A DNA stretch of 64,000 bases from sequence record PQ657772.1. The stretch is one strand, 5' to 3'. Below, in pieces: positions 59,103-59,687 of the stretch. This DNA comes from Escherichia phage EC.P1. Positions within the stretch are counted from its first letter, which is position 1. The number at the start of each line of letters is the position of its first letter. The notes beneath the pieces are model-generated. The model was not told the DNA's origin. It saw only the letters and a program-made list of their open reading frames with translations, and ran no database searches. A program made the translations under genes and the position numbers.

Positions 59103-59687
59103 TTATCGTGTTACCTTACTTGCTGCCACATCACGCTTTTTATAGTACTGATTCCAGATATTGCTGGTTAAACCGTAATCAAGTACTTTAATAAGTCCAT
59201 TACGATCCTGGCCGATATTCTGTTTTCTGATATCTCTTATCGTTAGTGTTGATAATGTATCATCAACGTGTTGTAGTGCATCAGCAAAGCGGTGCTGGCG
59301 TTCGATTGCATTACGTTTAATATTGTACTTTAATTCATTGCACGCGTTTACGTGCTTCACACTGCCTTTGCTTGCAGTACTCAACCGATCCATAACGATA
59401 AACATATTATCAGGATCGCATAAATGCATATGCACCTTTGCAAAGTACTGTTTCAACTGAGGGCGGTCATAGTCTAAAAAATTCCATACCTTACATTCAG
59501 TTTCATTTTGTTCGACACCCGCATCACAATTCGCGACCTTAATCACTAACCGATCATTTAAAGCGAATACTATACGGGAAGAACCAGCACCGATGATCTC
59601 CAGGCCAGCTAACCGACAAGCTGAAAGGATCTCTTTGTTGGTTTCCATTTCTGACAGTGTACGGATGAATTTAGTATATTTACGCAT
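59103..59687 (-). CDS. putative small protein kinase-like protein
   Basis: Gly-rich loop IGAGSSRIVF, VIKV lysine strand, catalytic-loop-like IRDIRKQNIG, DFG-like VLDYG; start trimmed to MRKYTKF with AGGAG RBS. Confidence 0.45.
   Translation of the reverse strand: MRKYTKFIRTLSEMETNKEILSACRLAGLEIIGAGSSRIVFALNDRLVIKVANCDAGVEQNETECKVWNFLDYDRPQLKQYFAKVHMHLCDPDNMFIVMDRLSTASKGSVKHVNACNELKYNIKRNAIERQHRFADALQHVDDTLSTLTIRDIRKQNIGQDRNGLIKVLDYGLTSNIWNQYYKKRDVAASKVTR

Follow-up and report, generated by a model that had tools for sequence, protein, structure and literature searches.

A minimal protein-kinase-like gene and its predicted fold

The stretch of DNA analysed here (the window) comprises 64,000 nucleotides of Escherichia phage EC.P1 (sequence record PQ657772.1) and carries at positions 59103..59687 of its minus strand a gene for a minimal protein-kinase-like protein of 194 aa, which belongs to the family phrog_4301. 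An earlier sequence-only reading of this DNA had proposed a kinase-like open reading frame (ORF) of this length at 59103-59687 without stating its strand, and the ORF was indeed present, on the minus strand and together with a good ribosome binding site (RBS). The program-made list of ORFs extends it to 59103..59744 (-) by starting from an upstream TTG codon; the ATG codon at 59687 yields the protein of 194 aa, encoded by 585 nt including the TAA stop codon at 59105-59103. Direct reading of the sequence revealed the RBS AAGGAGA at 59701-59695 on the same strand, 7 nt 5' of this ATG, and sequence comparison showed that the Met at 59687 is the start in all homologues too. The four motifs quoted in the sequence-only reading were recovered in the order it had given, namely IGAGSSRIVF at residues 32-41, LVIKVA at 46-51, TIRDIRKQNIG at 149-159, and VLDYG at 168-172. 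They contain the key residues of the protein, which are the loop G33xG35-S36-S37-R38, K50, D152xxxxN157, and D170-Y-G172, to which E64 is added from the region between the second and third motif. No paralogue of the protein was found in the window, the next hit of an hmmsearch having an E value of 0.13.

The protein matched phrog_4301 (PHROGs v4, listed there under 'unknown function') over residues 4-188 with an E value of 2e-41, and the same family was matched by 54/54 aligned relatives. While a word-indexed search returned 13 close relatives only, comparing a profile exhaustively with 1.84 billion representatives raised the number to 2,086 proteins at E <= 1e-3, of which 254 reached E <= 1e-10; most of these proteins are 180-260 aa long. 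The family thereby amounts to about 2,000 representatives at 50% identity, some of which are located on huge-phage contigs. The listed metagenomic relatives carry no precomputed Pfam domain, and a search of NCBIfam with the protein gave no match. Several metagenomic relatives (P0022 with 923 aa, P0030 with 969 aa, P0021, P0028, and P0033) contain two to four complete tandem kinase-like modules of about 200 aa per predicted polypeptide, which may represent either true fusions or read-through in gene calling, and in another relative (P0175) the module is fused to a GNAT acetyltransferase.

Conservation was assessed with an alignment of 54 sequences drawn from the exhaustive search (A2) and, more widely, by hmmalign of 212 members. 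Among the latter, R38, K50, G57, Q60, E64, D170, and G172 were conserved in 100% of the sequences, G159 in 99%, D152 in 98%, and G35, S36, N61, and A52 in 97% each, while position 171 was occupied by Y in 84% and by F in a further 10%. Comparing the A2 profile with the structures in the PDB returned protein kinases as the first matches (MKK4, MKK7, BTK, and FGFR), with an E value of 1.4e-5 for MKK4 and 'DlrkrsNlG…kllDYG' placed over 'DIKPSNIL…KLCDFG'. In the alignments with MKK4 and MKK7 (rDiKpsN and DFG), D152 pairs with the aspartate of the HRD motif, N157 with the Asn of the catalytic loop, and D170 with the aspartate of the DFG motif. The register also holds for the kinase gp0.7 of phage T7 (T7 kinase, T7K), where K50 of the studied protein corresponds to K93, the lysine of the VIK motif, D152 to D195, N157 to N200, and D170 to D213, and the P-loops are aligned as well. 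A misalignment of the conserved lysine and aspartates, which would have spoken against the kinase assignment, was thus not observed. PADLOC contributed weak matches to its PD-T4-6 kinase models (E 7e-4), which fit the fold and are silent on function.

The kinase fold suspected from the motifs was borne out by structure prediction. A run of AlphaFold2 (AF2) on 11 close homologues only was unusable (pLDDT 49.8), and the 54-sequence alignment A2 was required to obtain a confident model with a pLDDT of 93.4 and a pTM of 0.89. The predicted order of elements is two N-terminal helices, strands β1-β3, a long helix αC, β4/β5, two helices, the region of the catalytic loop, two short strands, the DYG motif, and a final helix. 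The model thus shows the bilobal architecture of protein-kinase-like folds, with a β-sheet and αC in the N-lobe and the catalytic and metal-binding loops in the C-lobe. K50 lies in a predicted strand at 47-52 (β3) and E64 in a helix at 55-73, as is characteristic of the β3 Lys/αC Glu pair, and the alignment provides both a D-x4-N catalytic loop (D152-IRKQ-N157) and a metal-binding Asp (D170-Y-G172). An invariant G-x-x-Q-N-x-x-E motif leads into αC, and an invariant Arg takes the place of the third Gly in the canonical GxGxxG loop. The kinase-like core comprises only about 165 residues and is preceded by a helical N-terminal extension of 28 residues. Only 22 residues follow from the DYG motif to the C-terminus, modelled as a single helix (175-193), and the end of the sequence, the span of the Pfam match, and the model agree that the chain lacks an activation segment, an APE motif, and an αF-αI/GHI subdomain. 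A Foldseek search of the PDB with the model returned kinase-like folds only, namely Lpg2603 (E 6e-5), APH(2''), MEK1, PknB, IRAK4, Rio2, and SAICAR synthase, and a structural search of BFVD placed T7-type phage kinases among the better matches (TMq 0.54-0.57). Judged from the profile matches and the predicted model, the protein belongs to the protein-kinase-like (PKL) fold superfamily.

Transcription signals and location in the terminal repeat

The conserved terminator element which the sequence-only reading had placed 3' of the gene corresponds to a terminator-like 12-bp hairpin, AAAGGGATTGAC-TCCG-GTCAGTCCCTTT, at 59091-59064 on the minus strand, beginning 11 nt past the stop codon, as detected by a terminator scan and by folding (-19.5 kcal/mol, z = -3.75). 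The window contains three exact copies of the hairpin, the others at 56304-56331 and 62071-62098, and each genome of the related phages has about four, located within or close to the terminal repeat in every case; the records of UE-S1 and G17 label it as a 'terminator'. By blastn, the element was found at 80-90% identity even in other genera, where the kinase-like protein is only 27-42% identical. Aligning eight copies, which stem from at least 5 genera, showed that the outer stem covaries between GGGA/TCCC, GGGG/CCCC, and GTAC/GTAC, with compensatory changes in 4/12 pairs and 99% of the cells paired, compared to 24-64% with slid partners. The element therefore exhibits the stable, selected hairpin of an intrinsic terminator. 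However, the sequence trailing the hairpin on the coding strand (minus), UUUGCUAUUAU, passes a simple terminator scan yet is interrupted, whereas a clean T-run, TTTTTTAATCTTTTTT, is present on the opposite strand, which leaves the efficiency of termination uncertain.

The hairpin overlaps with a promoter-like site which had gone unremarked in the sequence-only reading. This σ70-like sequence at 59084-59056 on the minus strand consists of a -35 hexamer TTGACT in the 5' arm of the hairpin, a spacer of 17 nt, and a TG-extended -10 hexamer TATTAT (10/12 matches plus TG in the scan). The arrangement TTGACT-17-TGcTATTAT agrees in sequence with an extended -10 promoter recognised by σ70, which calls for hexamers at a distance of 17±1 and a TG at -15/-14. 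The inner stem TTGAC…GTC(A/G)G and the trailing TTTGCTATTAT are invariant in the eight aligned copies. Based on these sequence features, the element is best read as a combined terminator-plus-promoter module that would insulate successive early units. Because an Rfam scan of 55-64 kb produced no match, it does not appear to be a described RNA family.

The gene is located within a stretch in which short genes and consensus σ70 promoters are closely packed. In the 5 kb around it, we detected six perfect TTGACA-N16/17-TATAAT sites (12/12 matches) on the coding strand, and the same scan found 25 promoter-like sites compared to 16.8 ± 4.2 in shuffled sequence. Upstream of the gene, a canonical intrinsic terminator consisting of GGCGGGATCAGTTCCCGCC followed by TTTTTTAT at 60309-60291 (minus strand, terminator scan) closes the preceding unit and is followed on the same strand by an ORF of 84 aa and by a σ70-like promoter at 60019-59991 (TTGACA-17-TATTAT, 11/12 matches). 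An ORF of 80 aa at 59961-59719 (minus strand) lies directly 5' of the kinase-like gene, and scanning the sequence between the two returned no terminator or promoter except for a weak 9/12 site. From the arrangement of these signals, the 80-aa ORF is probably co-transcribed with the kinase-like gene, and the promoter at 60019-59991 likely drives this two-gene unit.

A megablast search with the surrounding 1.7 kb retrieved 36 records at 93-96% identity, all from jumbo phages of E. coli or Salmonella with genomes of 310-386 kb; those listed with a genus label belong to Asteriusvirus, and examples are SP27, fEgEco12, UE-S1, G17, Sharanji, and PBECO4. The window accordingly represents a jumbo phage of E. 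coli of the Asteriusvirus type, with a genome of ~350 kb. With the protein as a query, tblastn found 59 records, 58 of which are jumbo phages of 310-386 kb, the exception being phiKp_21 with a record of 52 kb. The orthologues all come from Rak2-like jumbo phages and share 90-99.5% identity within Asteriusvirus and 27-42% in RaK2/K64-1, in Munch/7t3, and in phages of Erwinia, Xanthomonas (XbC2), Yersinia (fHe-Yen9), and Pectobacterium (CBB); further orthologues are encoded by Muenster, grouped with RaK2/K64-1, and by SE_PL, grouped with Munch/7t3. Distant metagenomic relatives occur on contigs of up to 345 kb. Many orthologues are located within the first 3-20 kb of their record, and in phage vB_Ec-M-J the gene lies at 16,690-17,274 and thus inside positions 1-21525, which the record annotates as a direct terminal repeat (DTR) of 21,525 bp. 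Aligning the inner end of this repeat with the window by blastn placed the boundary at about 54,850, so that the inner DTR-equivalent stretch extends over 54850..64000. The orthologues of the Klebsiella phages Muenster and fENko-Kae01 likewise lie within annotated terminal repeats, and the gene is present twice in records that assembled both repeats. A location inside the DTR would mean that each virion DNA has two copies of the gene. Promoter-rich arrays of short ORFs running into the terminal repeat were described for phage CBB as the early host-takeover region (PMC5259590). Taking together the consensus σ70 promoters, the DTR-equivalent position, and this precedent, it is reasonable to assume that the kinase-like gene is transcribed early. 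The flanking genes vary between Asteriusvirus, Munch, and Muenster, and with neighbours changing from genus to genus, we see no gene that could encode a dedicated partner or substrate.

Some further features of the window are recorded here in their own right. Many of the consensus early promoters are followed by a short, conserved inverted repeat, e.g. GGGGAGAATAGTTCTCCCC, which is predicted to form a stem-loop in the 5'-leader before the RBS; such repeats occur in minus-strand transcripts at 58100-58119, 58594-58613, 58900-58920, 61176-61190, 61447-61461, and 62747-62765, and they also give rise to a spurious recurring ORF start, 'MFYIERGKWF'. Just beyond the boundary of the DTR-equivalent stretch, positions ~50100-54700 contain an array of short paralogous genes, each coding for about 65-75 aa, in which DNA motifs recur (families D5, D7, D8, D10, and D13). 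Finally, an unbroken run of about 20 ORFs on the minus strand at 20600-32900, each 160-212 aa long, possibly comprises paralogue families, none of them kin to the kinase-like protein.

Proposed function and alternative explanations

The conservation and the model suggest that the gene product is a minimal phosphotransferase of the protein-kinase-like type and competent for catalysis. Beyond that, drawing on the analogy to the T7 kinase, we favour with modest confidence a minimal protein kinase that is always active, is produced early from its gene in the terminal repeat, and has host proteins, phage proteins, or both as its targets. In this scheme, host RNA polymerase with σ70 would transcribe the gene early after infection from the promoter at 60019-59991, jointly with the small upstream ORF, and the transcription unit would end at the hairpin at 59091-59064. 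The enzyme would hold ATP by its G33-x-G35-S-S-R38 loop and the pair of K50 (β3) and E64 (αC), use D152 as the catalytic base, and bind Mg2+ via N157 and D170 of the DYG motif. Because it has neither an activation loop nor an αF-αI docking lobe, it would always be 'on', and its specificity would be either broad or supplied by a partner. As the T7 kinase phosphorylates both host and phage proteins (PMC13645617), proteins of either origin would be its most likely substrates, and its role would consist in host takeover or in disarming defence proteins. A weak hint in the same direction may come from the composition of the encoded proteins: Ser, Thr, and Tyr together make up 15.6% of the residues in the ORFs of 54850-64000 compared to 19.5-20.0% in those of 1-46500, a modest trend without a late-gene baseline, which echoes the depletion of these residues reported for early proteins of T7K-encoding phages (PMC13645617).

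Several observations weigh against this interpretation. The match of the single sequence to the Pfam family Pkinase (PF00069) reached only 17.0 bits (E 0.004) and thus stayed below the gathering threshold of 31.7; the alignment spans only positions 26-152 of the 263 in the profile, and no more than 5/54 relatives matched it at E <= 0.01, the best with an E value of 5.7e-6. The Mg-binding Asn157 is present in only 18% of the 212 members and otherwise replaced by H, S, or T. We infer the kinase activity of phrog_4301 members from sequence and predicted fold, and a genuine T7-kinase homologue is encoded elsewhere in the phage, which would have no obvious need for a redundant promiscuous kinase. 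Moreover, the two distant relatives whose surroundings were inspected (P0210 and P0168, on huge-phage contigs of 306 kb and 287 kb) adjoin auxiliary genes for RNA-repair and nucleotide enzymes, namely a PNK-like AAA_33 protein, a NUDIX protein, T4 RNA ligase 1, DNA ligase, and a CCA-adding enzyme with an HD domain, which leaves room for a non-protein substrate.

This last point bears directly on the alternative that the enzyme phosphorylates something other than a protein in the style of aminoglycoside, choline, or Kdo kinases, be it a small molecule, a (signalling) nucleotide, or a nucleic-acid end. The absence of a peptide-binding activation segment and of the GHI lobe would agree with such a substrate, as would the fusion of P0175 to an acetyltransferase and the equally good structural match of APH-type enzymes. 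The association with RNA ligase 1, PNK-like AAA_33, NUDIX, and CCA-adding enzymes is, however, known from two contigs only, the profiles match protein kinases first without any APH or choline-kinase Pfam family among the matches, and the closest phage kin by profile and fold are the T7-type kinases, which are equally truncated and proven protein kinases. We therefore regard a non-protein substrate as unlikely, although it is the main rival of our preferred explanation. If the enzyme does act on proteins, these might mainly be the phage's own, for instance in a switch from early to middle expression or on a phage sigma factor, rather than host or defence proteins. These phages encode a sigma factor of their own and many early regulators (PMC5259590), and the T7-like kinase of the same genome could already serve the anti-host role; but no conserved neighbour qualifies as a dedicated substrate, given the different flanks in Asteriusvirus, Munch, and Muenster, and the precedent of the T7 kinase is one of host plus phage targets, which makes a purely phage-internal kinase distinctly improbable.

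A pseudokinase or ATP-binding scaffold that acts by binding would be in line with the extreme reduction of the fold, the invariant Arg in place of the third P-loop Gly, and the variability of the Mg-binding Asn in the wider family. Pseudokinases usually lose the very residues which are retained here across 212 diverged members, K50, E64, and D170 in all and D152 in nearly all of them, and N157 is present in the studied protein itself, so we consider this explanation very unlikely. That the motifs resemble those of kinases by mere chance is effectively refuted: the weak Pfam match of the single sequence and the poor AF2 model from the shallow alignment would be expected in that case, but the deeper alignment gave a confident model with kinase-like top matches only, the profiles align in register with invariant motif residues, and the GenBank record of Muenster independently cites an HHpred match of 99.9% to a kinase chain.

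The always-active protein kinase therefore remains our preferred explanation. As a more speculative extension to which we attach little probability, phrog_4301 might constitute a second lineage of phage kinases, sizeable and so far overlooked, with the invariant GSSR and QN..E signatures and the variable Asn marking a chemistry or substrate class unlike that of the T7 kinase. If this were true, the enzymes might phosphorylate a nucleotide, an immune-signalling molecule, or RNA ends and thereby provide counter-defence from the first DNA entering the cell.

Comparison with the T7 kinase and other known kinases

The protein shares with the Hanks-type kinases (PF00069) the bilobal fold, the Gly-rich loop, the β3 Lys, the αC Glu, the D-x4-N loop, and the D-[FY]-G motif. 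It differs from them by its core of about 165 instead of about 260 residues, by staying below the Pfam threshold, by the Arg replacing the third P-loop Gly, and by lacking the activation segment, the APE motif, and αF-αI. The Rio/Bud32 kinases, the APH(2'') aminoglycoside phosphotransferases, and Lpg2603 of Legionella are only 10-22% identical to it without any family-level sequence match, and these enzymes possess extra C-terminal helices and act on other substrates. In contrast, no difference exists to the members of phrog_4301 that are annotated in GenBank as 'putative protein kinase' of Rak2-like jumbo phages, to which the studied protein belongs directly. Orthologues are labelled as 'putative kinase' in the records of Munch, Muenster, K64-1, SE_PL, fENko-Kae01, fEgEco12, ph0011, and Turkey3/5, and the orthologue of Sharanji has been named as a kinase of unknown function (PMC11895373); a literature search for work on a RaK2 kinase returned nothing relevant. 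The kinase-like nature of the protein is thus already part of the public annotation, and our finding confirms an existing label rather than introducing a new kind of system.

Among known systems, a close one is the kinase gp0.7 of phage T7, which carries a precomputed assignment to the Pfam family PF27024. Phage kinases have recently become important through the finding that this enzyme is hyperpromiscuous and, by phosphorylating proteins broadly, disarms many of the defence systems of bacteria (PMC13645617). The same report mentions diverged homologues of it in jumbo phages, among them G17 and Munch, as unexplored and of unknown function, and describes a DPV (DP-x) motif replacing DFG as the hallmark of the T7K family (PMC13645617). 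We considered whether the studied protein is the jumbo phage homologue meant in that report and rejected this assignment, because the DP-x description fits two other proteins, WNN14432.1 of Sharanji and QCW18628.1 of 7t3, both of which are encoded outside the window. WNN14432.1 (224 aa, OR545507.1, 66182-66856, minus strand) contains an ITDPLS motif and matches T7 gp0.7 by BLASTP with an E value of 4e-8, while the orthologue of the studied gene in the same phage is WNN14351.1. By sequence, WNN14432.1 is a true T7 gp0.7 homologue, looks unrelated to the studied protein, and is encoded separately from it in the same phages. A tblastn search with it hit 770 phage records, mostly for gp0.7 of Autographiviridae, compared to the 59 records obtained with the studied protein, which indirectly suggests that the two are distinct, the 770 records not having been checked for the studied gene.

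Profile comparison nevertheless points to a remote relation between the families. While the phrog_4301 profile gave no significant match to the single T7K sequence (E 0.019, Prob 2.5%), the A2 profile aligned with a profile of seven T7K homologues (A4) over 133 columns with a Prob of 88.7% and an E value of 2.6e-6. Like the studied protein, T7 gp0.7 has a small kinase core that starts with 'AG[LF]..LG.G … VIKV' and stops soon after the Asp equivalent to that of DFG, and it is the product of an early gene read by the host polymerase, as we presume for the gene studied here. On the other hand, the T7K family, including the jumbo phage homologue, contains DPV or DPL where the studied protein has DYG and does not conform to the DP-x pattern, its catalytic loop reads D-M-H-S-G-N instead of D-I-R-K-Q-N, and T7 gp0.7 continues into a C-terminal host shut-off and DNA-binding domain that has no counterpart in the studied protein. 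Because of these differences in the metal-binding motif, the catalytic loop, and the shut-off domain, we conclude from the sequence comparisons that phrog_4301 does not belong to the T7K family and is probably a remote sister to it.

What our analysis adds to the existing annotation is the separation of the studied protein from the T7K homologue of the same phages and evidence that its family is both large and a remote sister of T7K. The two small kinases of these phages could easily be confused in annotations and papers. If active, the protein would be a further, simpler model for phage kinases that are constitutively 'on'. It is also a candidate factor for host takeover or anti-defence in phages that are now developed for therapy. 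Rak2-like jumbo phages appear to be equipped with a true homologue of the T7 kinase and, in addition, with a distinct and still smaller kinase-like gene, of which the terminal repeat provides a second copy.

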